Assembly: GCA_049325295.1 (NCBI GenBank)
Contig: JBMOMD010000043.1
Location: 11,578-75,577 of the forward strand
DNA: 64,000 nt
From: Nitrospirota bacterium
Lineage (GTDB): Bacteria; Nitrospirota; Nitrospiria; 2-01-FULL-66-17
Reading direction: 5' to 3'
Shown: positions 12,027 to 29,343 of the stretch, one piece after another
Numbering within the stretch: the first letter of the stretch is position 1
Layout of the letters: each line of letters begins with the position of its first letter
Notes under the pieces: generated by a model
Seen by the model: only the letters and a program-made list of their open reading frames with translations
Databases searched by the model: none
Told to the model about the DNA's origin: nothing
Position numbers and translations under genes: made by a program

Positions 12027-14696
12027 ATGGCTCGATCAGCGACGCACAAGTGGGTGTATTACTTCGGGGACGGACGCGCCGAGGGCAAGGCCGGCATGAA
12101 GGACCTGCTCGGGGGCAAAGGCGCCGGCCTCGCGGAGATGACCAACCTCAAGATCCCGGTGCCGCCCGGGTTCACCATCACCACCGAGGCGTGCGTCGAG
12201 TACTTCCGGCTCAAAAAATCGTATCCCAAAGGGATGTGGGACCAGACGCTCGCGGGGCTGAAGAAGGTCGAGCGGTCCATGAAGATGGGGTTCGGCGATC
12301 CCGAGCGGCCGTTGCTCGTCTCGGTCCGGTCCGGGGCCAAGGCGTCGATGCCCGGCATGATGGACACGGTGTTGAACCTCGGTCTGAACGAGCGCACGTT
12401 GCACGGCTTGATCAAAAAGACCGGCAACCCGCGCTTCGGCTACGACGCGTACCGTCGCTTCATTACCATGTTCGGCTCCATCGTGCTGGGCGTGAAGCGC
12501 GAGAAGTTCGAGCGTCTGTTGGAAGACGCCAAGGCCGAGCGCGGGGTGCATCATGACACCGAGCTGGACGAACACGCCTTGCGCCAGGTGGTCCGCGATT
12601 TCCAAAACTTGGTCAAGGCCGAGACCGGCCGGCCGTTTCCGGAAGATCCCATGGAGCAACTCACGCTCGCGATCAAAGCCGTGTTTGATTCGTGGTACGG
12701 CGCGCGCGCGGTCACCTATCGCAAGTTGAACAACATCCCGGAGTCGTGGGGCACGGCCGTGAACGTGGTGGCCATGGTGTTCGGGAACATGGGCGAGACC
12801 AGCGGCACGGGCGTGGCGTTCACGCGCGACCCCTCCACCGGCGAGCGGCGCTTCTTCGGGGAGTGTCTGCTCAACGCGCAGGGCGAAGACGTGGTCGCGG
12901 GCATCCGCACCCCGCTGCCGGTGGAGTCGCTCAAGGACACGATTCCCGCGGCGTATCGCGAGTTGCAGCGCGTGTACAAGTCGCTGGAGAAACACTACCA
13001 CGACATGCTCGACCTGGAGTTCACGATCCAGGAGGGCACGTTGTACATGCTCCAAACCCGCGTGGGCAAACGCACCGCCGCGGCCGCGATCCGCATCGCC
13101 ACCGAGATGGCCAAGGAAAAGCTCATTGACCGCGACACCGCGATCCTGCGCGTGGACCCGGAGCAACTCGACCAGCTCCTGCACCCCACCATCGACCCCT
13201 CTGCCAAGTTGCAGGTCGTGGCCAAGGGCTTACCCGCGTCACCTGGCGCGGCGGGCGGGAAAGTGGTGTTCACGGCCGAAGACGCGGAGCGGTCCGCGGC
13301 CAAGGGCGAAAAAGTGATCTTGGTGCGCGCGGAAACCTCGCCCGAGGACATCGGCGGCATGAACGCGGCCGAGGGCATTCTCACCGCGCGGGGCGGCATG
13401 ACTTCGCACGCCGCGGTGGTGGCGCGCGGCATGGGCAAGTGCTGCGTGGCCGGGTGCAGCGCGGTGAACATCGACGAACACAGCGACTCGTTCTCGGTCA
13501 ACGGCTACGTGGTGCGCCGCGGCGACTGGATCACGCTCAACGGCTCGACCGGCGAAGTCATCCTGGGCGAAGCCCCGCTGATCCGGCCCAAGCTGAGTAA
13601 GGACTTCGAGATCCTCATGGGCTGGGTGGACCAGACCCGGCGCCTGCGCGTGCGCGCCAACGCGGACACGCCCCACGACGCCCGGGTGGCGCGGGGATTC
13701 GGCGCCGAGGGCATCGGCCTGTGCCGGACCGAACACATGTTCTTCGAGGGCGACCGCATCCGCGCGGTGCGCGAAATGATCCTGGCCGACGATCTGGCCG
13801 GGCGGCAACGCGCGCTCGCCAAGTTGCTGCCCATGCAAAAGAGCGACTTTCTCGGCATCTTCAAGGAAATGGCCGGCCTGCCGGTCACCATCCGCCTGCT
13901 CGACCCGCCGCTGCACGAGTTCCTGCCCCAGACCGAGGCGGAACTCGCCTCGCTGGCCACGGACATGCACGTGTCGGTCGATGATCTGCGCGCCAAGAAC
14001 AAGAGCCTGCACGAATTCAACCCTATGCTGGGATGGCGGGGGTGCCGGTTGGGCATCACCTTCCCCGAGATTTACGAAATGCAGGTGCGCGCGATCTTCG
14101 AAGCCGCCTGCGAATTGGCCGGCCAGAAAGTTAAAGTGATTCCCGAAGTTATGATCCCCTTGGTCGCGCACGTGAAGGAATTGGCGCGCATGAAGGAATT
14201 GCTCATTCGCGTGGCCGAGGAAACCATGTCCCGCTACGGCAAGAAAGTGGCCTACACCATCGGCACCATGATCGAACTGCCGCGCGCCGCGCTCGTGGCG
14301 GACGAAATCGCCAAGGAAGCCGAGTTCTTCTCCTTCGGCACCAACGACCTCACCCAAACCACCTTCGGCCTCTCCCGCGACGACGCGGGCAAGTTCCTCC
14401 CGTTCTACGTCGAACAAGGCATCCTGCCCCGCGACCCCTTCGTGGCCATCGACCAGGACGGCGTGGGCGCCCTCATGCGCATGGGCGCAGAAAAAGGCCG
14501 CTCCGTGCGTCCCAAGTTGAAAGTCGGCATCTGCGGCGAACACGGCGGGGAGCCATCCTCCGTGGAGTTCTGCCACCGCATCGGCTTCGACTACGTGAGC
14601 TGCTCACCGTACCGCGTGCCGATCGCAAGACTTGCCGCAGCACAGGCGGCGCTGAAAGACAGCAAGAAGAAACGGGCGGTGTCGGATACGCGATAG
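12027..14696 (+). CDS. ppdK: Pyruvate, phosphate dikinase
   Basis: PEP-utilizing enzyme motifs ([22 protein letters not shown]). 889 aa. RBS GGAAGGGAG. Confidence 0.92.
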
Positions 14697-14697
14697 A

Positions 14698-14716
14698 CCC
14701 CGCGCGCTGCGCGGGG
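14698..14716 (+). terminator. GC hairpin CCCCGCGC-gct-GCGCGGGG directly after the ppdK stop (no U tract)
   Basis: Perfect 8-bp stem with a 3-nt loop, starting 2 nt after the TAG. Confidence 0.4.
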
Positions 14717-14742
14717 AAGACTTCTCATCCGGAGTGGGTGGA

Positions 14743-16080
14743 ATGCTGTCACGGCAGCAGAGTCCACAATCCTCGGGCACGACCTCCTCGCCAAAGCGCG
14801 GCGAGACTCCGAAGTCTCCTGCCTCCACGATCGAGATCAGCCAAGGGCAATCCGGGCGGCTCATCGTGCGCGTGCCGTACACCGCGGAGCGCGTGGCCAA
14901 GATCAAATCTATCACCGGCCGCCAGTGGCATCCGCAGGAAAAGTACTGGTCGGTGCCGCAGTCACCCCAAGCCGTCAACCGTCTGGTGGCTCTCTTTGGC
15001 GGAGAGCGTGTTTCGCTCCTCCCGCCGCTCGACGCGCCACCAATCCAGGATGCCCAGGGGCCGCCCGCGCCACCGGCCTCTCGTCAATCGACGGGAACGA
15101 CCGCCGGGCTTCTCGACGATGTGCGTCGTACGATCCGCAGCCGGCACTACAGCCGACGGACCGAAGAAGCCTATCTGGGCTGGATTCGGCGGTTCCTGCG
15201 GTTTCATGACCAACGTGATCCCGCACAGATGGCTGCCCCGGAGGTATCGCGCTTTCTCAGCACGCTGGCAATCGAGCGCGACGTGTCCGCCTCCACGCAA
15301 AACCAGGCCTTGGCCGCCATCCTCTTCCTGTACAAGGACGTGCTCGACCGCGACCCCGGATGGGTGGAAGGCGTGGTGCGCGCCAAGCGTCCGCAGCGCC
15401 TTCCGGTCGTGCTCTCCAGGCAGGAGGTCCAAGGCCTCTTGTCGGCGCTGCAAGGCGTGCCGTGGATCGCGGGGACCCTGCTCTACGGCGCGGGACTTCG
15501 TCTCATGGAGTGTCTGCGCCTGCGCGTCAAGGACGTGGACTTTGCCCGAGGAGAGATCGTGGTGCGCGAAGGGAAGGGCGGCAAGGACCGGGTCACCATG
15601 CTGCCGTCGGCCGCGGCGCCCAAACTCCGCGCACACCTGGACCGGGTCCGCAAACAGCACACGGCTGACCTGGCCGCAGGCTTCGGCCGGGTCTGGCTGC
15701 CAAACGCCCTAGCCCGCAAGTACCCCAACGCGGACCGCGAGTGGGGGTGGCAGTGGATCTTTCCGGCATCGACCATCTCAGTGGACCCACATAGCGGGGA
15801 GCGACGACGGCACCACCTGCACGAGTCCGTTCCGCAGCGTGCCATCCGCGAGGCCCGGCTCCGTGCTGGGATCACGAGACCCGTCGGTCCTCACACGTTG
15901 CGGCACTGCTTCGCCACGCATCTCCTGGAGTCCGGCCACGACATCCGCACCGTCCAGGAACTTCTCGGCCACAGCGACGTAAGAACCACCATGATCTACA
16001 CCCACGTCCTCAACCGCGGCGGCCTCGGCGTCCAAAGCCCGGCCGACCGGATTCTTGGAGGAGGCAGCGATGAGCGTTAG
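14743..16080 (+). CDS. intI: Integron integrase IntI (tyrosine recombinase with the IntI-specific additional domain) carrying a ~120 aa N-terminal extension
   Basis: [42 protein letters not shown]... matches the IntI-specific insertion. The C-terminal [39 protein letters not shown] is near-identical in pattern to IntI1, as recalled from memory. ATG at 14743 after RBS GGAGTGGGTGGA. Confidence 0.85.
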
Positions 16081-16250
16081 GACGCAGAATTTGTCGTATA
16101 ACATCACTTAACCATCGCTTAATGGAAATCGAGAAAACTGTTGGATTGTTTAATTAATCTGTGGAATAATTCACCATCGTCCTGATCTTGTTAGGACGCA
16201 GTTCTTGCCGTAGTTGCTGAATTCATTAGGACGTCTAATTTTAGTTGGGC
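16076..16250 (+). other. attI-like region. Direct repeats GTTAGGACGCAG (16076-16087, 16190-16201), ATTAGGACGTCT (16225-16236), and core GTTGGGC (16244-16250) at the cassette junction. AT-rich, with a candidate Pc promoter TTGGAT-N17-GAATAAT (16141-16170).
   Basis: GTTRRRY-type integrase-binding half-sites are repeated downstream of the intI stop. Crossover G|TT lies at 16244/16245, where the cassette-1 ORF region begins. Confidence 0.5.
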
Positions 16251-16256
16251 GCCAAT

Positions 16257-17258
16257 ATGACTGAGCGCATCGCTATTGCCGGTGTCTCCGAGCGAGACGT
16301 AGATCTTCTATTGTTGGAGGAGTTTCAGTCTTCCAGCGACTTTCAAGGCTGGTTTGTACGAGAAGCGTTCGGCCCCGACGTTGACTTTGGGCAGTGCACT
16401 GGAGCAAGACGATCAATCACGAACTCTACGGGCGAATCGGATCTCGAGATCTTCTTTGCGAACTCCAAAGGTGAGAAGACCCGGCTCTTGATAGAGAACA
16501 AGGTAAACGCCGGTTTTCAACCACTTCAGGCTGAGCGGTACAAGGAGCGAGGGCTGGGCTACGTTTCTACAGCCCAATGCAACTCCTTTCGAACGGTACT
16601 CATAGCTCCAGCTCGCTACTTCGGTGAATCGGCTTCCCGCAAGGGTTTCGATGGGCGCGTTTCGTATGAGCAGATTCTTCGTTGGTTCGGAGAAGCGGTG
16701 CAACTCGGCGAGAGGCGTCAATACAAAGTCGCATTACTAAGGTCGGCCATTGACAAGGGCACGCTCGGGTACCAACCAGAAGAAGACAAGCCGACAACAG
16801 CGTTTTGGAAGGCGTACTGGCGCTTCGCGCTCGATCGGGCTCCCGAGCTTGAAATGCCGGAGCCCAGTGCAAAACCATCCCGCTCCAGCTTTGTCCATTT
16901 CAGGCCCCGTACTCTGCCGCGCTCGGTAGACATCGTCCACAAGTTCGCATTCGGTCACGTTGATCTGCATTTGCGCGGCATGGGCAAACGTCTTAACGAG
17001 GTGCGCGTTGCCGTGCGACCTTATCTGGCTCCTGCCATGACTGTCGCGGCGGCAGCGAAATCAGCGGCGATACGTATCGAAGTCCCGAAACTACGCGTCA
17101 CGGCGCCATTTGAGGCGCAAACACCAGAGGCAGAACTTGCCCTCGATGCAGCAAAGCGGTTGCACGTATGGTTTATCGACAGCAACGATTTCGCTACGTG
17201 GTTGGTTGGCGCCCAACAATCGGTTGCAGGCGACGCGCCGCGAGCGGCACGTGCCTGA
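16257..17258 (+). CDS. Cassette-encoded PD-(D/E)xK nuclease-superfamily protein of unknown function
   Basis: ~52% GC against a ~67% background. Motif GESDLEIFF...LLIENK (D...ExK) with upstream E/D residues. No RBS, which is common for cassettes. Bounded by GTTGGGC cores. Confidence 0.6.
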   Translation: MTERIAIAGVSERDVDLLLLEEFQSSSDFQGWFVREAFGPDVDFGQCTGARRSITNSTGESDLEIFFANSKGEKTRLLIENKVNAGFQPLQAERYKERGLGYVSTAQCNSFRTVLIAPARYFGESASRKGFDGRVSYEQILRWFGEAVQLGERRQYKVALLRSAIDKGTLGYQPEEDKPTTAFWKAYWRFALDRAPELEMPEPSAKPSRSSFVHFRPRTLPRSVDIVHKFAFGHVDLHLRGMGKRLNEVRVAVRPYLAPAMTVAAAAKSAAIRIEVPKLRVTAPFEAQTPEAELALDAAKRLHVWFIDSNDFATWLVGAQQSVAGDAPRAARA

Positions 17259-17273
17259 ACCGAAGCGTTGGGC
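17211..17273 (+). other. attC recombination site of cassette 1 (63 bp)
   Basis: GCCCAACAATCGGTTGCAGGCGACGCGCCGCGAGCGGCACGTGCCTGAACCGAAGCGTTGGGC. R''=GCCCAAC and R'=GTTGGGC, with imperfectly complementary L arms and bulged bases. Strongly resembles aadA-type attC, recalled from memory. Confidence 0.65.
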
Positions 17274-17290
17274 GCCATAACAGAAGAACC

Positions 17291-17644
17291 ATGAACGTTC
17301 GCATTGCGACAACCGATTCCGAGATTGCCATCTGCTATCCAGTAATGCGGGAGCTTCGTCCGCACATCGCGGAAGAGCGATTTCTCTCCCGGATCCGGAG
17401 TCAAGAAGGTGCAGGCTATCGGCTCGCCTATGTGCAAGAACCAAATGGCGTAGTTGCGGTTGCTGGATTCCGAGTCGGTGAGAATCTGGCTTGGGGGCGT
17501 TTTCTGTACGTCGATGATCTTGTAACCCTTCCCGCACACCGATCAAAGGGCTATGGTGCCAAGTTGCTTTCGTGGCTCAAAGAACAAGCCGCAAAGGAAG
17601 GTTGTGAGTGCTTGGTCCGGGGTCGGACCCGCGCAATGTGTTGA
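17291..17644 (+). pseudogene. GNAT family N-acetyltransferase, 3'-truncated by insertion of the RAYT/IS element
   Basis: GNAT motif A (HRSKGYGAKLL) is present. The protein ends 9 aa after GCECL, with the beta5-beta7 region missing. The sequence diverges exactly where the element's inverted repeat begins (17614). ~53% GC. Confidence 0.55.
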
Positions 17645-18551
17645 AAAGTCATCCGCCTTTGGGCACAATGAGGCCGCTGGAGGTCTTGGATCGCACGTTG
17701 TAGAGCCAAAACTACGCTGCAGGGAGGAAGCGTCATGCCGCGCGCCCATCGCTATTTTCTTCCCCATCACATCTGGCACATCACGCACCGGTGTCATCAA
17801 CGGGCGTTTCTCCTGAAGTTCGCGCGTGACCGCCGGCGCTGGCGGCAGTGGCTGTTTGAGGCCACGAAGCGGTTTCGGCTGTGTGTGCTCAATTACGTCG
17901 TCACGTCCAACCATATTCATCTCTTGGTCCGGGATCAGGGGCGAGGCGAGATCGCGCGCGCGATGCAGCTCATCGCGGGACGCACGGCCCAGGAATACAA
18001 TCAACGCAAAGGGCGACAGGGAGCGTTCTGGGAGGATCGGTATCATGCCACGGCGGTCGACACGGAGAGCTACCTGGCCCGCTGTCTGGTCTACATTGAT
18101 CTGAACATGGTGCGGGCGGGCGCCGTGGCGCACCCGCGTGACTGGGACGCGGGCGGCTATCACGAGCTGCATGCGCCACCCACGCGGTACGCGATCATCG
18201 ATCAGCCGGCGCTCACCGAGTTGCTCGGCCTGAAGAGTCTCCAGCAACTACAGGAGACTCACGCGCTGTGGATCGAGGAGGCGATCCGGGCGGGAGGTGG
18301 ACCACGCGATCCGATGTGGACCGAGAGCGTGGCGGTCGGCCGCGCCGAGTTCGTGCGAGATGTCCAGGTCGAGCTGGGGAGCAAGGCGCGATATCGGGAG
18401 GTCGTGGCCGAAGGACAGGCGCACGTGCTGCGCGAACCGCCGACCCTCTACGGGGCATTTTGACGGGCAAAAGGCCGCGCGAAGGGCTCAACCGTCCGCC
18501 GTGGCGGACCAAAACCTCGAGACATCAATCGATTGCGCTGGTCCGACCCCG
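17614..18551 (+). mobile_element. RAYT / IS200-IS605-like element bounded by 12-bp inverted repeats CGGGGTCGGACC (17618-17629) and GGTCCGACCCCG (18540-18551)
   Basis: Left end GGTCCGGGGTCGGACC is itself a hairpin. A second GTCCGCC-gt-GGCGGAC hairpin sits at 18494-18509. Inserted inside cassette 2. Confidence 0.5.
17735..18463 (+). CDS. Y1 HUH transposase, REP-associated tyrosine transposase (RAYT / IS200-like TnpA), 242 aa
   Basis: HUH motif SNHIHLLV and the catalytic-Y helix VYIDLNMVRAGAV (YIxxNPVRAGLV-like). N-terminus HIWHITHRCHQRAFLL matches the Transposase_17 family. Confidence 0.75.
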   Translation: MPRAHRYFLPHHIWHITHRCHQRAFLLKFARDRRRWRQWLFEATKRFRLCVLNYVVTSNHIHLLVRDQGRGEIARAMQLIAGRTAQEYNQRKGRQGAFWEDRYHATAVDTESYLARCLVYIDLNMVRAGAVAHPRDWDAGGYHELHAPPTRYAIIDQPALTELLGLKSLQQLQETHALWIEEAIRAGGGPRDPMWTESVAVGRAEFVRDVQVELGSKARYREVVAEGQAHVLREPPTLYGAF

Positions 18552-18844
18552 AGCGACACCCCGAGCGACTCCCCCGCTGGCGCAGACCGCCTGGCTGCCC
18601 GTGCTCCGGGCCCTGGGGGCGCGCGCGTGGTTCGGCGAGCAGCTCTACGTCGCGGGCGCGGGCCAGGTGTTCGACGCGCACGGCCGGCTCGTCGATGAGA
18701 GAATCAGAACACTCCTGACCGAGTTCATGGCGGGCTTTACCGCATTCGTGAACGTCAAATGAGTCCTGAGCGACTCGATCGACGGACGTGCCGCGGTGGG
18801 GAAACGGCGCGCGAGGGACCATCACGTTAACCGGGAGGTGAGCC

Positions 18845-19273
18845 ATGCTGTTGGGATTCTTGGATCGCTACCGCGACTACGGACCGCTCTGTCTTCGCAT
18901 CGCACTCGGCCTCGTGATGATGGGGCACGGCAGCCAGAAATTGTTCGGCGCGTTCGGCGGGGGCGGTTTGTCGGGTACCGCGGGGTTCTTTGATCAAATC
19001 GGACTCGCGCCGGGCCTGTTCTGGGCCACGGTGGCGGCGATCGTGGAAACCTTCGGCGGGCTCTTGGTCTTCATCGGATTGCTGACGCGCGTGGCCGGCG
19101 TGTTGATCGCGATCACCATGTTCGTGGCCATGGTGTGGGTCCATCTGCCGAACGGGTTCTTTCTCCAAAATAAGGGGATCGAGTTCACCCTGGTCCTGTT
19201 CAGCATGGCCACGGCGCTGGCGCTGACGGGCCCGGGCGCGGTGTCGGCCGACGCCATGGCCACGAAACGGTGA
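18845..19273 (+). CDS. DoxX family membrane protein
   Basis: DoxX-like TM pattern (GLVMMGHGSQKL...FFDQIGLAPGLFW). RBS GGAGGTGAG. Confidence 0.75.
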   Translation: MLLGFLDRYRDYGPLCLRIALGLVMMGHGSQKLFGAFGGGGLSGTAGFFDQIGLAPGLFWATVAAIVETFGGLLVFIGLLTRVAGVLIAITMFVAMVWVHLPNGFFLQNKGIEFTLVLFSMATALALTGPGAVSADAMATKR

Positions 19274-19297
19274 TTGCTTTCACGAGGGAGGTGATCC

Positions 19298-19666
19298 ATG
19301 AAGGTGATCGAGATCGCGTTTACCGGGTATCCCGTGACCGACCTCAAGCGCGCGCGGAAATTTTATGAGGGCGCGCTGGGCTTGACGGTCGGCAAGATGT
19401 TCGGCGATGAGAACCAGGCGTGGGTGGAATACGACATCGGGCCCGGCACGCTCGCCATCGGCAATATCGCGCCGGAATGGAAACCCTCGCCCAACGGCGG
19501 GTCGATCGGACTGGAAGTGGATGACTTCGAGGGCGCAATCAAACGGCTCAAGCAGCTCGGCGTCACGTTCGCGGTCGAACCCATGGAATCGCCGGTCTGC
19601 CGCATGGCCGTGATCTCGGACCCCGACGGCAACTCGGTGACCATTCACAAGCGCAAGGCCAGATAA
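19298..19666 (+). CDS. VOC (glyoxalase/bleomycin-resistance) family protein
   Basis: Small VOC-fold sequence (YPVTDLKRARKFYEGALGL...). Confidence 0.72.
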   Translation: MKVIEIAFTGYPVTDLKRARKFYEGALGLTVGKMFGDENQAWVEYDIGPGTLAIGNIAPEWKPSPNGGSIGLEVDDFEGAIKRLKQLGVTFAVEPMESPVCRMAVISDPDGNSVTIHKRKAR

Positions 19667-19739
19667 CGCGAGCGAGGGGATGACGGTTCGCGACATGGGG
19701 CAAGGTTCCCTTCCCTCCCGCGTGTTTGGCCTTTGATCA

Positions 19740-20126
19740 ATGCGCGTCGCCTGGGAGGATGCGATCAGACGCGGTGACGTCCGGACCGTTTGCGAGCTCA
19801 TTGCGCGCGGCGTGGACGTCAATGCCCGCGATCGGTACGGACAGACCGGTCTGATGCTGGCCGCGCACGCCGGGCATCGCCGGATCGTGGAAACGCTCAT
19901 CGCGCATCGGGCCGATCCGAACGTCACCGCCAAGTTCGGGTTGAGCGCGTTGATGTTGGCGGTTGTGGCCGGGCATCCGGACATTGCGCGCCTCTTGGCG
20001 AAGGTCGGGGCCGATCTCGCGTTGCGGGGAACCGGGGCTCCTGGCTTCGCCAACAAGACCGCCTATGATTTGGCGGTCGAGCGCGGCATGTCGGAGGTAT
20101 CCGCTGAATTGAAGCCCGAACCGTAA
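19740..20126 (+). CDS. Ankyrin repeat protein
   Basis: ANK repeats (GQTGLMLAAHAGHRRIVETLIAHRADPN...). Confidence 0.7.
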   Translation: MRVAWEDAIRRGDVRTVCELIARGVDVNARDRYGQTGLMLAAHAGHRRIVETLIAHRADPNVTAKFGLSALMLAVVAGHPDIARLLAKVGADLALRGTGAPGFANKTAYDLAVERGMSEVSAELKPEP

Positions 20127-20141
20127 ACCAAGGACGGCGCG

Positions 20142-20744
20142 ATGACGTCAGACTCTGAGCGACGCGCGGAATACGAGCGGTTCAAGCGGATCGACGCGGC
20201 GTTTCGCGCGGGTGATCTGGCCGCGTTGCGGGCCGCGGTCGATGATCCGGCGGCCGTGCCGAACGGACCGATGCCGTTGACCATCGGCTCCTGCCTCGAA
20301 TACGCGATCTACCACAGCCCGTTGCCGTTCATCCGCGCGCTGCTGGAGATCGGCGCGGATTCCAACCCCGCGGACCACGCCGGGTTTCCGCCCTTGATCG
20401 CGGCCTTGTCGTGCGGCCGCGCACAGCCCGGCGCGCCCGGTCGATCGGACGTCATGGAGGTCATGAAACTTTTGCTCGCGTTCAGGTCCGACCCCAACCA
20501 ACGCGGGATCAACGACTATACGCCGCTGCACATGGCGGTCAGCGAGCGGAATCTGCCGGCAATCGAACTCTTATTGGTCTCAGGCGCGGACCCGCGGCTG
20601 CGCACCCGGATCGACGAGCGCGAAACCCCGCGCGAGATGGCGGAGAAAGCCGGATCTCGCGACATCGCTCGGCTGCTTGCGAGTCACGAGGCGGCGCGCC
20701 GGGGTGAACCCGGTCCCGCCGACACGTTCAACGAATCACGTTGA
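20142..20744 (+). CDS. Ankyrin repeat protein
   Basis: ANK repeats (YTPLHMAVSERNLPAIELLLVSGADP). Confidence 0.7.
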   Translation: MTSDSERRAEYERFKRIDAAFRAGDLAALRAAVDDPAAVPNGPMPLTIGSCLEYAIYHSPLPFIRALLEIGADSNPADHAGFPPLIAALSCGRAQPGAPGRSDVMEVMKLLLAFRSDPNQRGINDYTPLHMAVSERNLPAIELLLVSGADPRLRTRIDERETPREMAEKAGSRDIARLLASHEAARRGEPGPADTFNESR

Positions 20745-20792
20745 CCCATCCGGTCGTGTCCGGTTTCGCGGACGCGTTGTGCGGCATCGCAC

Positions 20793-20822
20793 TTTACCTG
20801 TTTGTCGGGCCCGTGGTATAAG
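20793..20822 (+). promoter_or_regulatory. Promoter-like motif TTTACC-N17-GTATAAG(CGCGGCATGC). One of two near-identical copies; the other is at 26677.
   Basis: Shares CGTG(G/T)TATAAGCGCG(G/C)CATGC and a TTTAC(C/T) -35 at identical spacing with 26677-26706. Confidence 0.45.
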
Positions 20823-20857
20823 CGCGGCATGCGCGTCCGTTCCCCCGGAGCAGCGGC

Positions 20858-21307
20858 ATGAGCCTGCGTTGGTTGCGGCGGATCGGCGTTCACCTGGTGA
20901 CGGTGCTCGTTGGTCTCTCGACCGCGGGCGCCGCGGTCGACGCCAAGCTCGGACTGCCGACCCCGATCACGACCGGGCTGGCCGATTACGCGTTCCAGGG
21001 AGCGGACGCGGCGGTCAAGGCGTGGGCCAAAGGCAGCGCGCGGGAGGGGAGTCCTGAAACCTCGATTCAAGTCAACTACTTGAAACACGTTGAAGCGATG
21101 TACGGGAAGTTCCAGAGTTATCATCTCGTCCAAGTGCATGCGCTCTCGCCATTGACCCTCATCGTGTACCTGACCATCAACTACGAGAAGGGACCGTTGT
21201 TTGCCCGGTTCCTGTCCTACCGCATCAGAAACGATTGGGTGCTGCCGGAGTTCAGCTTCGACACCAAACCCGAGGCGATTTTCCCGCCCGAGTTGTTGGC
21301 GGACTGA
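20858..21307 (+). CDS. Hypothetical secreted protein (signal peptide)
   Basis: N-terminal hydrophobic signal sequence. RBS GGAGCAG. No family recognised. Confidence 0.45.
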   Translation: MSLRWLRRIGVHLVTVLVGLSTAGAAVDAKLGLPTPITTGLADYAFQGADAAVKAWAKGSAREGSPETSIQVNYLKHVEAMYGKFQSYHLVQVHALSPLTLIVYLTINYEKGPLFARFLSYRIRNDWVLPEFSFDTKPEAIFPPELLAD

Positions 21308-21346
21308 CGCCGCGCTTCGGCGAGGGAACGGGACACGCGTTCGACG

Positions 21347-21541
21347 ATGACCCTGTCGGCAGACCAGTGGAAAGAGTGGATTGTTGCGGCCGTCGTGATC
21401 ACGGCCGGGGGCGTCGTTCTCGCCGTGGTCGGGTCGTTACGCGGCTACGACGGAATCGCACGAGTCGGAACCGTGACGGCGTTCGGAGGGTTCATTCTGT
21501 TTCTGGTCGCGCGTATCCGGTATTCCCGCTGTCGCCGATGA
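21347..21541 (+). CDS. Small hypothetical 2-TM membrane protein (64 aa)
   Basis: Two hydrophobic helices. Weak evidence only. Confidence 0.3.
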   Translation: MTLSADQWKEWIVAAVVITAGGVVLAVVGSLRGYDGIARVGTVTAFGGFILFLVARIRYSRCRR

Positions 21542-21585
21542 CGCGGTTCCCCACATCCGGTCGGCGCCGGGCGTTCGGAGGATGA

Positions 21586-22002
21586 ATGGCCGGGTGGGAG
21601 CTGTTTCAGCACGGCGCGGACATCGGCGTGCGGGGCATCGGTCGATCCAAGGCCGAAGCCTTTGAACAGGCGGCAATGGCGCTCACCGGCGTGGTGACTG
21701 ATCCGGCGACCGTGGCGCCGAGGGACGTGGTGGAGATCACGCGCCGGGAGGCCGACGAGGAGTTGCTGCTGGTGGACTGGCTCAACGCCCTGGTGTACGA
21801 AATGGCGACGCGCCGGATGCTGTTCAGTCGGTTCGAGATCACCGTGGAGCGCGACACGTTGCGCGCGAAAGCCTGGGGCGAGGCCGTGGACGTGGCCAAA
21901 CACCAGCCGGCCGTCGAGGTCAAAGGCGCCACGTTCACCGAGCTGCGCGTTCGCCGGGATCAGGACGGCGCCTGGACCGCCCAGTGCGTGGTGGACGTGT
22001 AG
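21586..22002 (+). CDS. Archease (RtcB activator)
   Basis: Archease-length protein, N-terminus [17 protein letters not shown], directly upstream of rtcB. RBS GGAGGA. Confidence 0.85.
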
Positions 22003-22009
22003 CCGGTCG

Positions 22010-23452
22010 TTGGAGGCACTGATGGAACTCGCGCAACTGATCCGACAATCCGAGACCGAATGGCGGATCCCGCCGAGCGGGACGATGCGGGTCCCGGTGA
22101 TCATCTACGCGACCGAATCCCTGATGCGGGAGATGGATCAGAAGGTCTACGAACAGGCGGTCAACGTGGCCGCGCTGCCGGGGATTGAAAAGGCGTGTTA
22201 CGTGATGCCCGACGCGCATTGGGGCTACGGCTTTCCGATCGGCGGCGTCGCGGCCTTTGATCCGGATCGCGGGGGCGTCATCTCGGCGGGCGGGGTGGGT
22301 TTTGATATTTCCTGCGGAGTCCGCGCATTGGTGACCGGCATGACGCGGGAGACGATCGCGCCGGAGCGGGAGCGGTTGGCCGAGGCCTTGTACCGCACGG
22401 TGCCGGCCGGCGTGGGCAGCCGGGGCAAGATCCACCTGAGCTCCCACGAGATGGACGAGATGTTGCTGGGCGGCGCCGGTTGGGCGGTGGGGAAAGGGTA
22501 CGGCCGTCCGGAAGATTTGGAGCGAATTGAAGAGCGCGGACGCATGGACGGGGCGCGGCCCGATCAGGTGTCCGAGTTCGCCAAAAAGCGCCAACAAGAC
22601 GAGATGGGCACCCTGGGCTCGGGCAATCACTACTTGGAAGTGCAGGAAGTCCGGGCCGTGTACGACGCGGAATTGGCCGCGGTGTTCGGAATTCGCCAGG
22701 GCGACGTGGTGGTGAGCATCCACTGCGGCTCGCGCGGCCTGGGCCATCAGATCGGGACCGAGTTTTTGAAGAAGATGCTGCCGGCGGCCGCGCAAGCCGG
22801 CATCGAACTCCCGGATCGCGAGCTGGCCTGCGCGCCCATCCGGTCGGACGTGGGGCAAGCATACCTTGGGGCGATGCGCGCGGCCACCAACTGCGCGCTG
22901 GCCAACCGGCAGATCATCACCCACCTGGTGCGCCAGGCGTTCGGCCGGGTGTTCCCTTCCGCGGAGCTTCGATTGCTCTACGACGTGTCCCATAACACCT
23001 GCAAGGTCGAAACACACGTCGTCGACAACCGGCCTAAACGCCTGTTCGTGCACCGCAAGGGCGCGACCCGCGCCTTCGGTCCCGGGCATCCGGACATTCC
23101 GCCAGCGTTGCGCGCGGTGGGACAACCGGTGTTGATCGGCGGCACCATGGGCACGGCGTCGTACGTTCTGGTGGGAACCGGCCAGGGAGAGGAGCGATCC
23201 TTTGGATCGGCCTGCCACGGCGCGGGGCGGAGCATGAGCCGGCACCAAGCCACGAAACAATGGCGGGGACGCGACTTGATCGACGCCTTGGCCGCCAAGG
23301 GCGTGTTGATCCGCAGCCCCTCCTACCGCGGCGTGGCCGAGGAAGCGCCGGGCGCGTATAAAGACGTGGACGCGGTGGTGGACGCCGCGGATGAGGCCGG
23401 ATTGGCTCGAAAGGTGGCCCGGCTCGAGCCGATGATCTGCATCAAAGGATAA
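22010..23452 (+). CDS. rtcB: RNA-splicing ligase RtcB
   Basis: RtcB signature (MPDAHWGYGFPIGGVAAFD...HNHY...). 480 aa. Confidence 0.92.
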   Translation: MEALMELAQLIRQSETEWRIPPSGTMRVPVIIYATESLMREMDQKVYEQAVNVAALPGIEKACYVMPDAHWGYGFPIGGVAAFDPDRGGVISAGGVGFDISCGVRALVTGMTRETIAPERERLAEALYRTVPAGVGSRGKIHLSSHEMDEMLLGGAGWAVGKGYGRPEDLERIEERGRMDGARPDQVSEFAKKRQQDEMGTLGSGNHYLEVQEVRAVYDAELAAVFGIRQGDVVVSIHCGSRGLGHQIGTEFLKKMLPAAAQAGIELPDRELACAPIRSDVGQAYLGAMRAATNCALANRQIITHLVRQAFGRVFPSAELRLLYDVSHNTCKVETHVVDNRPKRLFVHRKGATRAFGPGHPDIPPALRAVGQPVLIGGTMGTASYVLVGTGQGEERSFGSACHGAGRSMSRHQATKQWRGRDLIDALAAKGVLIRSPSYRGVAEEAPGAYKDVDAVVDAADEAGLARKVARLEPMICIKG

Positions 23453-23801
23453 CGTCGCGACGTTCCTCCACGCGCCGCCGCGCCACGCGTCGGTCATCGT
23501 TCATATCACGAACAGCGCCGGCGGCGTTGCCTTGACTTCACGACCGAGGCCGTGTTACCCGACTGTTATCCGGTCGGTCGTTTCGGCCGGCGTGGTCGCG
23601 GGTTCGGAGGAACCGGTTCGTCTCCGCGGGGAGGATCCCAGTCCCCGCAGAGGAGGGTTCCGTGGAGTCAGGTCCGCGCTCCAGAACGAGCGTTTCACCG
23701 TACGGCGCCTTCCACGCGCCGCGCGCGCCTCCTTGCATACCTCATCCCCGTAGTCGCACTTTCCCATTGCTTCTGAAATCTGAAACGAAGGAGGTTTCGC
23801 A

Positions 23802-26018
23802 ATGAACACTCGTCCAACTCGTGACCCGCCGTGGCCGTCGACCCCGTTCGCAAAGGGGACGCTCGCGCTGGGCGGCCTTGTCCTGGTCGCGGTCCTCTCC
23901 GCGGGAATCTCCGCCTTGGCCGCGAACGACGCCGTCGCCACCGGCGTCCAATCCGAACAACTTGTTCCCCCGGCCTGGGTCGGGAATCAGTGGCTGCGTT
24001 ATGATCCTGACGCGCGCATTCAAGAAGAAACCGGATACCGGATTCTCGCGCTGGAGCGCGATCACTCGGAACGACTCGGGCTGTTGGCCAATCGGTGGAG
24101 CGATCTGAGCGCCGACGCGTCCAGCTTCGCGAAGGCCCGCGGCGCGCGCCTGCAGGAAGCGTTGGGACTTTCGATTGCCACGACCGCCCAGCGCCTGTAC
24201 ATCGAGCGGTCGGCGCTCGAGGCGGCCCTTGCCGAGCATCGCGCCACCGTCGCCGCGGTGCTGAGCGGGGGCTGGTTTCAGGAGCGCCTGGGAGCGGCGA
24301 TCGCCCAGACCGCCGCCGCGATCCCGCCGAACGATCCCCGTTTTCTCCCGCGCATCGAGGCCGAGCGCGCGAAGTTGTCCGTGTTCGAGTCCCGCGTGGC
24401 CAATCGGGCCGCGGAACAGATCGGCGTGTTGAACGCGCGGTTGGCGCAAGTTCCCCGCGAGTCGATCACCCGCCTGGCCGACGCGATCGCGGAGGGCCGT
24501 CGAGTGGCGCGTTTTTACGACGCGTCCGTCGAGGCGCAGTTCGCGCGCGACATCAACCAGATTCAAACCGAAATGACGGCGACCAGGGACGCAAGGGATT
24601 ATCAAGCCATCGCGCAAGCGGCCGAAGCCGCGGTGCGGTCGCCCTGGAGCGGTCGCGGATTTCTGGAATTCGGCGCCGCGGCGTTGCTCGGCGCGATCGG
24701 CGCCATGGCCTGGGTCGCCCTCACCACCAAAGCGGATTTCCCCCGCGTGCGCGATCGGATCACGAGGCCGTTGACCGGGAAACCGTCGCGCCTTCCCCGA
24801 TGGAAAGGCCGGGTCGCGAGACCGCGATCCACGGCGCTGTCGATTTGGCCTCGCGAGGTGATCTTCGGCAGCCACTGCACGCGGGACATCGGCGGTTACG
24901 CCGGCGGCGAGCATGCCTCGCACGTCACGATCTTGACGGACCCCGACGTCGCCCGGAGAGGGCTCGTGGACCCGGTGACGGCCTCGCTGGCCGAAGCCGG
25001 GGTTCGATGCGACGTCATGGCGCGGGTCTCGCGCGAAGTGCCCCACGCCGTGGTCGCGGACATCGCGTCCTGGTGCAAGGCCGCGAAAACGGATCTGCTG
25101 GTGGCGGTCGGGGGCGGCAGCGTGATCGACACCGCGAAGGCGGTCGGGATCATCTTGACGAACGGCGGCTCGATCCAGGACTACGAAGGGGTGGACCGCG
25201 TGGGTCTCCCGATCACGACGTTGTACGCGGTGCCGACCACGGCGGGCTGCGGGGCCGAGACCAGTCCGTTCTGCATCGTGCGCGACGCGACCCGGAAACG
25301 GAAGTTCGAGATCTTCAGCCGCGCATTGATCCCCGAGCGGGTCTTTATCGATCCGTTGATGACCCGCACGATGCCGCCGGATCTGACCGCGAGCACCGGC
25401 CTCGACGCCTTGGCCAACGCGGTTGAGGCGTATTTTTCCACGTGGGCGAATCCGCTGAGCGACACGCTCGCGCTGGACGCGATACGGCTCATCGGGGAGA
25501 ACCTGCGCGCGGCCGTGGCCAACGGCCAGAACGTGCACGCCCGCCAACAGATGGCGCTCGCGGCCTTCGAAGCCGGGCAAGCCTCGGTCAACGCGAGGAG
25601 CGGCGCGGTGCACGCCCTCGGGCACTCGTTGTCGGGACAATTTGATCTCCCGGAGCGGATCGGGAACGCGATCCTGCTTCCGCACGTGATGCGGGCCTAT
25701 CTCTACGCGGACGGACGGCGCATGGCCAAGGTCGCCGAAATGTTGGGCGAATCCGTGGCGGGCCTGAACGCGCGCGCGGCGGCCCAGCGCGCGATCGACG
25801 CGGTGACGGTGCTCTTGATGGACGTGGGACTCCCCACCACCCTGGAGCAAGTGGGCGTGGACAAACACGCGATTTCGACGCTGAGCGTGCAGGCGATGGA
25901 GGACCCGTTGCTGCGGGCGAACCCACAGGCGCTCAAACGGGAGGACGTCGAGGCGATCTACGAGGACGCGTTCATCGAATACGCCGAAATCGAGATGGAA
26001 CCCTCGAAGCAAAGTTGA
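23802..26018 (+). CDS. Fusion protein: N-terminal 2-TM / Ala-rich extracytoplasmic-like domain (~340 aa) plus C-terminal iron-containing alcohol dehydrogenase (Fe-ADH family) domain
   Basis: C-terminal half has the Fe-ADH NAD motif GGGSVIDTAKAV and the metal-binding HALGHSL. Two predicted TM helices at aa ~20-42 and ~292-312. Single uninterrupted ORF. RBS AGGAGG. Confidence 0.8.
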   Translation: MNTRPTRDPPWPSTPFAKGTLALGGLVLVAVLSAGISALAANDAVATGVQSEQLVPPAWVGNQWLRYDPDARIQEETGYRILALERDHSERLGLLANRWSDLSADASSFAKARGARLQEALGLSIATTAQRLYIERSALEAALAEHRATVAAVLSGGWFQERLGAAIAQTAAAIPPNDPRFLPRIEAERAKLSVFESRVANRAAEQIGVLNARLAQVPRESITRLADAIAEGRRVARFYDASVEAQFARDINQIQTEMTATRDARDYQAIAQAAEAAVRSPWSGRGFLEFGAAALLGAIGAMAWVALTTKADFPRVRDRITRPLTGKPSRLPRWKGRVARPRSTALSIWPREVIFGSHCTRDIGGYAGGEHASHVTILTDPDVARRGLVDPVTASLAEAGVRCDVMARVSREVPHAVVADIASWCKAAKTDLLVAVGGGSVIDTAKAVGIILTNGGSIQDYEGVDRVGLPITTLYAVPTTAGCGAETSPFCIVRDATRKRKFEIFSRALIPERVFIDPLMTRTMPPDLTASTGLDALANAVEAYFSTWANPLSDTLALDAIRLIGENLRAAVANGQNVHARQQMALAAFEAGQASVNARSGAVHALGHSLSGQFDLPERIGNAILLPHVMRAYLYADGRRMAKVAEMLGESVAGLNARAAAQRAIDAVTVLLMDVGLPTTLEQVGVDKHAISTLSVQAMEDPLLRANPQALKREDVEAIYEDAFIEYAEIEMEPSKQS

Positions 26019-29266: not shown

Positions 29267-29343
29267 GCCCCCGTAGCTCAGTTGGATAGAGCAGCGGTTT
29301 CCTAAACCGCGTGTCGGCCGTTCAATTCGGCCCGGGGGCACCA
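29267..29343 (+). tRNA. tRNA-Arg (anticodon CCT), CCA encoded
   Basis: Cloverleaf: acceptor GCCCCCG/CGGGGGC, D-arm GCTC...GAGC, anticodon stem GCGGT/ACCGC with loop TTCCTAA, T-arm GGCCG-TTCAATT-CGGCC. 77 nt. Confidence 0.88.

Follow-up and report, generated by a model that had tools for sequence, protein, structure and literature searches.

The window, that is, the whole stretch of 64,000 nt analyzed here, contains a complete set of integron components located directly downstream of the ppdK gene, namely an integrase gene (intI), a candidate attI site, and one attC site. The intI gene (14743..16080, + strand) encodes a protein of 445 aa, a length that is also given by the Logan gene call. The protein matches the integron integrase family TIGR02249 with a score of 474.5 bits (cut-off 265). 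Its ORF is intact, the IntI-specific insertion is kept, and all residues aligned to R, K, H, R, H, and Y of IntI1, which we take to be the catalytic residues, are conserved. The attC site is located 1,131 bp downstream of intI on the same strand; the presence of an integron integrase, proposed in a preliminary description of this DNA, was confirmed by the TIGR02249 match. No LexA box was found near intI, and matches to it in the window occurred at chance level.

The designation of this integrase as IntI1-like was not supported. Its identity with IntI1 is 54% over 318 aa in a gapless alignment, its score with the IntI1 equivalog NF011946 (PRK15417) is 361 bits, which is under the NCBI cut-off of 435, and, unlike that of class 1, its gene is co-oriented with the cassettes. 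The window integron is not a class 1 integron. In class 1 integrons, intI is divergent from the array and attI1 is located between them, whereas both intI and the cassettes of the window lie on the + strand, and the window attI differs from attI1 and is located downstream of the intI stop codon. In addition, IntI1 lacks the N-terminal extension of approximately 120 aa that is present in the window integrase. The Tn402-type context of class 1 was not found around the integron, which is flanked by the housekeeping genes glyS and ppdK and by a unit of a REP-associated tyrosine transposase (RAYT).

The candidate attI (16076..16250, + strand) was recognized by direct repeats, L and R boxes, and conservation in relatives. 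It contains direct repeats D1-D3 (GTTAGGACGCAG..., 16076-16098 and 16190-16212), the L box GTCTAAT (16233-16239), and the R box GTTGGGC (16244-16250), with a putative crossover point at G16244/T16245. The two boxes are separated by a 4-bp spacer, which matches the distance of 4–5 bp given for attI sites (PMC12614218). In two related loci, L086 and L087, whose IntI proteins are 83% identical to that of the window, attI is conserved to ...GTCTAATTTTAGTT (GTT crossover) and the sequences diverge immediately beyond this point, where different first cassettes are found. The synteny of ppdK and intI is also present in L086.

Cassette 1 (16245..17267, + strand, 1,023 bp) is bounded by an 11-nt junction repeat, GTTGGGCGCCA, found at 16244 and 17267 with a spacing of 1,023 bp, and the start of the cassette is complementary to positions 17206-17217, in the R'' region, at 12 of 12 bases. 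The cassette contains an ORF of 333 aa (16257-17258, + strand) with weak similarity to PD-(D/E)XK proteins (PF14281, 24.1 bits); a comparison of its product with PADLOC gave only weak PDC-S26 matches (E about 0.002). The stop codon of this ORF lies inside attC, and the next ORF begins 18 bp past it. Cassette 1 is not preceded by any recognizable sigma-70-type promoter. The GC content falls from approximately 65% to 45–59% across attI and the cassettes, with an AT-rich dip (45% GC) at attI. In a soil metagenome locus, L083, a homologue of the cassette 1 gene (59% identical) is followed by a homologous attC, which suggests that the gene and its attC travel together.

The attC of cassette 1 (17211..17273, + strand, 63 bp; GCCCAACAATCGGTTGCAGGCGACGCGCCGCGAGCGGCACGTGCCTGAACCGAAGCGTTGGGC) was identified by its fold, a covariance-model match, and alignment. 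Its R'' core, GCCCAAC (17211-17217), and R' core, GTTGGGC (17267-17273), fit the RYYYAAC and GTTRRRY consensus sequences, and their sequences are exactly as previously described, with complementarity at 7 of 7 positions. Together with the flanks, the R''/R' helix reaches 11 bp (17207-17217 with 17267-17277). The R'' core is followed by a 5-nt spacer (17218-17222), L'' GTT (17223-17225), a bulged G of the top strand (17226), a stem (17227-17231), a second bulged G (17232), a further stem segment (17233-17240), a loop (17241-17244), the opposite arm of the stem (17245-17257), L' AAC (17258-17260), and a 6-nt spacer (17261-17266) before R'. The imperfect L arms with bulges and the GC-rich center noted earlier correspond to an asymmetric L box, extrahelical bases, and a GC-rich stem. 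The bulges were positioned by an alignment-anchored walk along the stem, since parsing based on the minimum free energy (MFE) was unreliable and produced spurious spacer pairs.

The − strand of attC with its flanks is predicted to fold into a single hairpin of -35.3 kcal/mol (z = -7.7), and none of 200 dinucleotide shuffles was as stable. The + strand gives -32.1 kcal/mol. In the comparison with other attCs, the bottom strand is more stable than the top strand by 2.9 kcal/mol; the mean difference (bottom minus top) is -2.08 in the comparator attCs described below and -2.12 in published attCs (PMC5027507). Two single-base bulges are present, both in the 3' arm of the − strand; this agrees with a recombinogenic bottom strand and cassette genes on the + strand. 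The expectation of a folded bottom strand with extrahelical bases was borne out, the bulges being confined to one arm. The central spacers have canonical lengths (5 and 6 nt); within them TCG and CGA can pair, so that the spacer is predicted to be almost fully paired and only a 2x1 internal loop stays open. The top strand is purine-rich (GC skew +0.05, AT skew +0.26), the reverse of the tendency reported in attCs of mobile integrons (PMC5027507). The earlier characterization as a textbook attC is correct as to attC, but was not supported as to textbook, given the C-N5-C bulges, the predicted pairing of most of the central spacer, and the purine skew of the top strand.

Strict and relaxed scans with a regular expression plus folding detected only about 20 attCs in 80 integrase loci and were too insensitive; they were replaced with a test of the IntegronFinder type, an attC covariance model (R1) constructed from 12 attCs of other integrons, with the window attC left out. 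According to this model, 17211-17273 is a full-length match with 43.1 bits on the + strand (E = 4.5e-9) and 20.9 bits on the − strand, and the next-best match in the 64-kb window has 12.4 bits (E = 0.48). In the 80 loci, the model found 139 matches, 112 of them upstream of intI on the opposite strand and 27 downstream of it on the same strand. There were no exceptions to these two arrangements, which indicates that the model is specific. The L boxes covary across the model matches (90.5% of cells paired), and none of 500 shuffles reached the observed score. Matches were present in 41 loci, and 10 of these have the co-oriented layout seen in the window. A strict core-site and fold scan of the 64 kb detected no second site of this kind, and the Rfam search of the window at the gathering threshold found a single tRNA, with no family matching attC.

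Cassette 2 is represented by its 5' part only (17268..17618, + strand). It contains an ORF of a GNAT acetyltransferase that starts at 17291 and is cut near codon 109; the Pfam Acetyltransf_1 match ends at profile position 96 of 116 (protein residue 108), and the reading frame enters an inverted repeat of an inserted element. This element is a RAYT/IS200-like unit (17619..18550, + strand) with a tnpA-like ORF (17735-18463, + strand) that matches NF047646 REP_Tyr_transpos (E = 3e-19) and PF01797 (Y1_Tnp). The unit is bordered by inverted repeats of 19 nt (17619-17637 and 18532-18550), the only such pair in the window. The rest of the GNAT gene is absent beyond the RAYT unit, where a 69-aa frame (18553-18762) has no Pfam match. 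With the filters off, the covariance model found no attC besides 17211-17273 in the region 14000-24000; since cassette 2 is truncated by the RAYT unit, this site is the only attC, and there is no array within the window to confirm it. The small + strand genes beyond the RAYT unit, encoding DoxX, glyoxalase, and ankyrin proteins, were considered as further cassettes and rejected on the basis of their host-like GC content, short intergenic gaps of 15–73 bp, and lack of model matches even with the filters off.

The preliminary description also placed the site close to the attC of the aadA1 cassette and quoted a sequence for the latter. This sequence agrees with the actual aadA1 attC apart from the first two bases; in plasmid R100 the site reads GTCTAAC.... 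The claim of near-collinearity was supported, as the geometry of the boxes is the same in both sites (R'' of 7 nt, spacer of 5, GTT, bulge, stem, AAC, spacer of 6, R' of 7). The aadA1 attC, from the class 1 integron In2 of plasmid R100, also shares with the window site a second bulge, a GC stem, and a loop of 3–4 nt. The two sequences are identical at 43 of 64 alignment positions (67%), which exceeds the identity of shuffles in which the cores were held fixed (z = 5.7). The strong resemblance to aadA-type sites, however, was not upheld: among 139 environmental attCs, 8 are closer to the window attC than aadA1, which ranks only ninth, and a related integron contains a 78% match. The best of the 139 reach 75–76% (76%, or 50/66, for the attC of locus L059), whereas the median identity of the short members is 60.5%.

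Several differences between the two sites were also found. The aadA1 attC is 60 nt long, compared with 63 nt in the window; its bulges are T-N6-G rather than C-N5-C; its central spacer is unpaired, whereas that of the window site is predicted to be mostly paired; and its purine skew is opposite. The integron that carries it is of class 1 and mobile, and its intI1 is divergently oriented. The window attC has neither the sequence closeness nor the T-N6-G pattern of an aadA1-type attC subfamily, and it has no special relation to the clinical aadA1 site. IntI1 recognizes structure, and for this reason recombination of the window attC by IntI1 would be plausible in general, but similarity to the aadA1 sequence gives no ground for expecting it. 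IntI1 works best on T-N6-G or T-N6-C bulges and tolerates changes in their spacing poorly (PMC3053210).

As a separate observation, an attC very similar to that of aadA1 (55 of 60 positions) was found in a Nitrospira-related chromosomal integron (L088:13183-13242), and an aadA1-type attC with 50 of 60 positions identical to aadA1 is present at L030:19132-19191. The former bears on the origin of the recombination sites of clinical cassettes.

The C-N5-C bulges of the bottom strand of the window attC occur in none of the 139 comparators, in which T-N6-G is the commonest pattern (22/139). An alternative, T-N6-C-like register of the window site is less stable than the minimum-energy fold by only 2 kcal/mol. 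The attC at L091:5638-5695 (JGI 3300045502), found in an integron whose IntI is likewise extended and approximately 70% identical, is identical to the window attC at 50 of 64 positions (78%), and its first 26 nt differ at two positions only. Both sites contain a top-strand G bulge after GGTT and a spacer predicted to pair (CGGTT with AACCG), and both are located downstream of a co-oriented intI. The L091 sites are T-N6-C, whereas the window site differs from them by a base in the 3' arm that moves its minimum-energy register to C-N5-C. The attC of L083 is identical to the window attC at 46 of 64 positions, and its core is mutated (GCT in place of GTT). The comparison shows that attCs of this clade of integrons repeatedly have a bottom-strand C bulge and a spacer predicted to pair.

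Taken together, the 63-bp element is very probably an attC (59-base element). It would end the first cassette of an integron of the sedentary chromosomal type, the host being an uncultured Nitrospirota bacterium. Co-orientation of intI and the cassettes corresponds to the "inverted integrase" layout. The "inverted integrase group" of the Boucher classification (cited in PMC3575428) has intI and cassettes on one strand and attI past the 3' end of intI, as in the window. Integrons of this group are likewise chromosomal and located beside housekeeping genes, whereas the window array is down to one complete cassette, and its integrase, which retains 54% identity with IntI1 without gaps, has an extra N-terminal domain.

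By analogy with the established integron pathway, the − strand, when single-stranded, would form a hairpin in which the R box consists of R' paired with R'' and the L box of GTT paired with AAC. The − strand alone has a G-T wobble and two bulged cytosines, which would mark it as the strand to be bound by the integrase. IntI would then cleave the bottom-strand 5'-AAC-3' between A and C, which corresponds to G17267/T17268 of the top strand, and strand exchange with attI (G16244/T16245) would insert or remove the cassette, the recombination intermediate being resolved by replication. The expected junction of the circular cassette is …GAAGCG/TTGGGCGCCAATATG…. Since the next cassette is truncated and a second attC is absent, only attI x attC exchange would now be open to cassette 1. 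We infer that the site and the integrase are still active.

The opposite reading, that the site is a relic in which the structure is still recognizable while recombination has ceased and the chromosome in effect retains the cassette permanently, appears rather unlikely. It is suggested by the position of the site as the sole attC before a cassette truncated by the RAYT unit, by the atypical C-N5-C bulges and the predicted pairing of the central spacer, and by the GCT core of the homologous L083 attC, which shows decay in the lineage. On the other hand, the R''/R' pairing is perfect and extends to 11–12 bp, AAC and GTT are intact, the T-N6-C-like register is only 2 kcal/mol away, and the integrase has an intact ORF with the residues aligned to the catalytic ones of IntI1 conserved. 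Moreover, the first cassette found at this attI varies among close relatives, which indicates that the system was recently active in this lineage.

Two further explanations of the hairpin were considered. A strong GC-rich hairpin that covers the end of the PD-(D/E)XK-like gene, including its stop codon, could be a transcription terminator or an mRNA-stabilizing structure with no part in recombination, but it is not followed by a T-run and is absent from the results of the terminator scan, and the RYYYAAC/GTTRRRY cores, the asymmetric L box, the strand-specific score of the attC model, the adjoining intI and attI, and the junction repeat common to attI make this highly improbable. Membership in a dispersed REP/MITE-type palindrome family might be suspected because a RAYT, an enzyme family acting on REP elements, is encoded 450 bp away, and hairpins arising by chance are many in high-GC DNA; nevertheless, a search of both strands of the 64 kb showed the element to be single-copy, its sequence is unrelated to that of the repeats around the RAYT unit, all 200 shuffles folded less well, and the covariance model matches it with E = 4.5e-9, so that either origin is extremely improbable.

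Taken by itself, the attC is of modest interest, being one more cassette site of an environmental chromosomal integron. The locus documents a complete integron in Nitrospirota; in a 2022 census of complete genomes, this phylum had two attC clusters only and no complete integrons (PMC9024848).

The most interesting lead lies outside the attC question and concerns the N-terminal extension of the integrase (14743-15108, + strand, approximately 120 aa), which appears to include a conserved HARP-like domain fused to the integrase. The match of the extension with the HARP domain PF07443 is sub-threshold (17.7 bits, cut-off 25; E = 0.0026), and weak matches with PF07443, all below the gathering threshold, were found in 16 of 64 homologues. 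A phmmer comparison of the domain with PDB sequences gave no match. The AlphaFold2 model has a core at aa 30-93 (pLDDT 82–90) with the topology beta-beta-alpha-beta-beta-alpha-beta; the HARP fold was considered as described in PMC4666394. Residues W62, W69, P72, and L84 are invariant in the alignment of at least 63 protein clusters. The NCBI gene call for the same protein is 319 aa long and leaves the domain out, and no paper on such a HARP-integrase fusion was found in the literature searched. In SMARCAL1 and T4 UvsW, the HARP/UvsW-N fold recognizes forked DNA or single-strand/double-strand junctions. Since the substrate of integron recombination is a folded single strand, and its product has to be resolved by replication, such a domain could act at forks or hairpins. 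It can tentatively be proposed that there is an integrase clade, possibly spanning Nitrospirota, Elusimicrobiota, Armatimonadota, and others, in which all members have a conserved HARP/UvsW-N-like domain of approximately 65 aa that could bring the integrase to replication forks or aid the capture of attC hairpins. The attC subfamily seen with these integrases, distinguished by a C bulge of the bottom strand, a spacer predicted to pair, and co-orientation of the array with intI, might be co-adapted to the domain.

A covariance model of attC sites was trained on 11 short attCs from 80 comparator loci, which carry relatives of the neighbouring integrase and come from GTDB representative genomes, together with the attC of aadA1 from the class 1 integron of plasmid R100; the window site was excluded. 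The model matched the 63-nt palindrome at 17211-17273 over its full length on the + strand (43.1 bits, E 4.5e-9) and the same interval on the - strand (20.9 bits, E 0.0028). The best match elsewhere in the window was on the - strand (12.4 bits, E 0.48), and switching the filters off for 14000-24000 left the result unchanged. In the 80 loci, the model detects 139 sites, and without exception they fall into two classes: 112 in 31 loci are upstream of intI and opposite to it in strand, and 27 in 10 loci are downstream and share its strand. In addition, covariation of the L-box pairs is strong (one of them is seen as A-U 53, C-G 47 and G-C 29 times), with a score reached by none of 500 shuffles. 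Because the sites show these two arrangements only and the L-box covaries, the model acts as an attC detector. A scan of the 64 kb for core pairs and folds found no second RYYYAAC...GTTRRRY pair with a good fold.

The sequence of 17211-17273 given in the preliminary description is exact, and R'' GCCCAAC and R' GTTGGGC are complementary throughout. Once flanks are counted, the R''/R' helix comprises 11 bp (17207-17217 with 17267-17277). The top strand of the attC reads R'' GCCCAAC, spacer AATCG, L'' GTT, a bulged G, CAGGC, a second bulged G and ACGCGCCG in its 5' half, followed by the loop CGAG, CGGCACGT, GCCTG, L' AAC, spacer CGAAGC and R' GTTGGGC. With flanks, the bottom (-) strand folds into a single hairpin of -35.3 kcal/mol, a value attained by 0 of 200 dinucleotide shuffles (mean -16.8 kcal/mol; z = -7.7), and the + strand fold is -32.1 kcal/mol. 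The bulged bases described for the L arms were borne out as two single-base bulges, both of which fall on the 5' arm in the top strand and on the 3' arm in the - strand. Bulges are canonically on this side when a site is recombined via the - strand and its cassette gene reads +. When the 63-nt site is folded without flanks, the bottom strand exceeds the top in stability by 2.9 kcal/mol, to which a G-T wobble contributes in part. The mean strand difference has the same direction in the 139 comparator attCs (2.08 kcal/mol) and in published mobile-integron attCs (2.12 kcal/mol; PMC5027507).

As for the proposed aadA-type resemblance, the aadA1 attC cited for it is a real sequence with its first two bases wrong, as judged from the R100 copy. 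The boxes are indeed collinear, and 43 of 64 positions (67%) are identical (z = 5.7 against core-fixed shuffles), but this likeness is not special, since aadA1 ranks only 9 against the 139 comparators. The top three of these (L059, L057 and L017) show 75–76% identity to the window attC, the median for short comparator sites is 60.5%, and the site of a related integron, L091:5638-5695, is identical at 50 of 64 positions (78%). True aadA1-type sites were found at L088:13183-13242 and L030:19132-19191, with 55 and 50 of 60 positions identical to aadA1, respectively. The L088 locus (GCA_040981135.1) carries a protein named “integron integrase [Nitrospira tepida]”, and its attC, which belongs to a co-oriented chromosomal integron, comes after a 124-aa ORF for which no Pfam domain is on record. 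Reportedly, Ghaly et al. placed the aadA1a attC in a Xanthomonadales type in 2021. The window attC is a further attC of an already known kind and has no special tie to aadA1.

The site is also not quite “textbook”. Its bottom-strand bulges follow a C-N5-C pattern; the central spacer, “unpaired” in canon, is mostly paired in the predicted fold, as it is in the L091 sites; and purines are enriched on the top strand (GC skew +0.05, AT skew +0.26), whereas the purine skew of mobile-integron attCs lies on the opposite, bottom strand (PMC5027507). The bottom-strand loop is CTCG; a GAA loop is usual in mobile-integron attCs. None of the 139 comparators shares the C-N5-C pattern, and ~16% of them have a C at the L-box bulge. 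The bulges of aadA1 are T-N6-G, which is also the commonest comparator pattern (22/139). The L091:5638 site reads T-N6-C; its 5' arm differs from that of the window attC at two of the first 26 nt, and the shift of the best register in the predicted fold comes from a single differing base in the 3' arm. For the window attC, an alternative T-N6-C-like register that contains a C-A mismatch costs only 2 kcal/mol relative to the minimum. Since IntI1, according to Larouche and Roy, reaches its highest efficiency on attCs with T-N6-G or T-N6-C, has its optimum at a spacing of six bases and tolerates others poorly (PMC3053210), recombination of the window attC by IntI1 is possible, though its likeness to aadA1 does not imply it.

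The genes glyS, ppdK and intI (14743-16080, 445 aa) follow in this order, each on the + strand. The integrase, described as IntI1-like, reaches 474.5 bits with the model TIGR02249 “integron integrase” (cut-off 265) and 361 with the NCBI IntI1-type equivalog, under its cut-off of 435. It shows 54% identity with R100 IntI1 over 318 residues without gaps and keeps the integron-specific insertion and all residues that align with the catalytic R, K, H, R, H and Y of IntI1. Two 23-nt direct repeats starting with GTTAGGACGCAG are located at 16076, overlapping the intI stop codon, and at 16190; beyond them, a 4-bp spacer separates an L box (GTCTAAT) from an R box (GTTGGGC, 16244-16250). The layout of 16076-16250, a candidate attI, agrees with attI as described in the literature, where two inverted binding boxes lie 4–5 bp apart (PMC12614218). 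The boundaries of cassette 1 are marked by two copies of the 11-mer GTTGGGCGCCA, at 16244 and 17267, which are spaced by exactly 1,023 bp. At the attI junction, the initial 12 nt are the perfect complement of 17206-17217, as expected if a circular cassette, whose own first bases close its attC, had been inserted there. Over the attI and cassettes, GC content drops from ~65% to 45–59%. The locus is a complete chromosomal integron with the integrase co-oriented with its cassettes, a same-strand layout known since Boucher's classification as the “inverted integrase group” (PMC3575428). For the phylum Nitrospira, IntegronFinder 2.0 recorded two attC clusters only and 0 complete integrons in complete genomes (PMC9024848). 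Between the ppdK stop and the intI start, a GC hairpin without a T-run (CCCCGCGCGCTGCGCGGGG, 14699-14717) may act as a terminator or have a regulatory role; a LexA box was not found near intI.

Window positions 14363-17539 recur with 100% identity on a Logan contig from SRR32167792, and an NCBI protein named “MAG: integron integrase [Nitrospirota bacterium]”, encoded on a contig of 230 kb, is 100% identical to the integrase core. The conserved N-terminal domain is missing from the NCBI gene call (319 aa); that of Logan has 445 aa. The ~120 extra residues (14743-15108; structured core of ~65 aa at about 14830-15021) are kept in three Elusimicrobia homologues, and such an extension is present in dozens of homologues of 400–445 aa, including those of Nitrospira tepida and an Armatimonadota MAG. 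Residues W62, W69, P72 and L84 are invariant in an alignment of 63 extended homologues. The Pfam HARP match to this domain is sub-threshold (E = 0.0026), and weak HARP matches in 16 of 64 members make it the sole recurrent non-integrase family. In the AlphaFold2 model, five strands and two helices make up a confident core (pLDDT 82–90), in agreement with the published HARP fold (PMC4666394), which tentatively suggests a HARP-like fold; a role in recombination is speculation. A literature search found no paper on an integrase fused to such a domain. In the integrons with extended integrases (L088, L089, L091 and L010), the attCs are co-oriented in all cases.

Evidence of cassette mobility was obtained from related loci. 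Two JGI contigs, L086 and L087, encode integrases with 83% identity, and L086 shares the ppdK-intI synteny. Aligned to window 16040-16330, their attI is kept up to ...GACGTCTAATTTTAGTT and immediately diverges into three different sequences, with junction cores GTTGGGC, GTTCGGC and GTTAGGC; conservation up to GTT followed by divergence indicates three different first cassettes at one conserved attI crossover. In the soil metagenome Ga0066709 (L083:1041-2055), a gene homologous to that of cassette 1 (59% amino acid identity) is directly followed by a homologous attC (46/64 identical, 25.4 bits), indicating that gene and attC travel together. The R' core of this attC is GCTAGGT, the conserved GTT being mutated to GCT, so some copies decay. 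No integrase was found in the 1 kb upstream of the homologue, which is preceded by GTCTAATCCTTAGTTAGGC, resembling the L-box/R-box junction of the window attI. The cassette 1 protein itself (ORF 16257-17258) shows a marginal match to the PD-(D/E)XK nuclease family PF14281 (24.1 bits) and weak matches to the candidate defence family PDC-S26 (E ~0.002).

Cassette 2 starts at 17268 and contains a GNAT acetyltransferase ORF from 17291, whose Pfam match ends at profile position 96 of 116. Its frame enters a 19-nt inverted repeat from 17619, with truncation near codon 109. This repeat and its partner (18532-18550) flank the gene of a REP-associated tyrosine transposase (RAYT, IS200-like) in the unit 17619-18550, which truncates the GNAT cassette and ends the array. 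Neither the rest of the GNAT gene (protein-family search past the RAYT unit) nor its attC (attC model, filters off) is present; therefore, the window attC is the only one here, and cassette 1 is left with attI x attC exchange only. Further downstream, a tRNA gene at 29267-29340 is the only match in the window at the Rfam gathering threshold.
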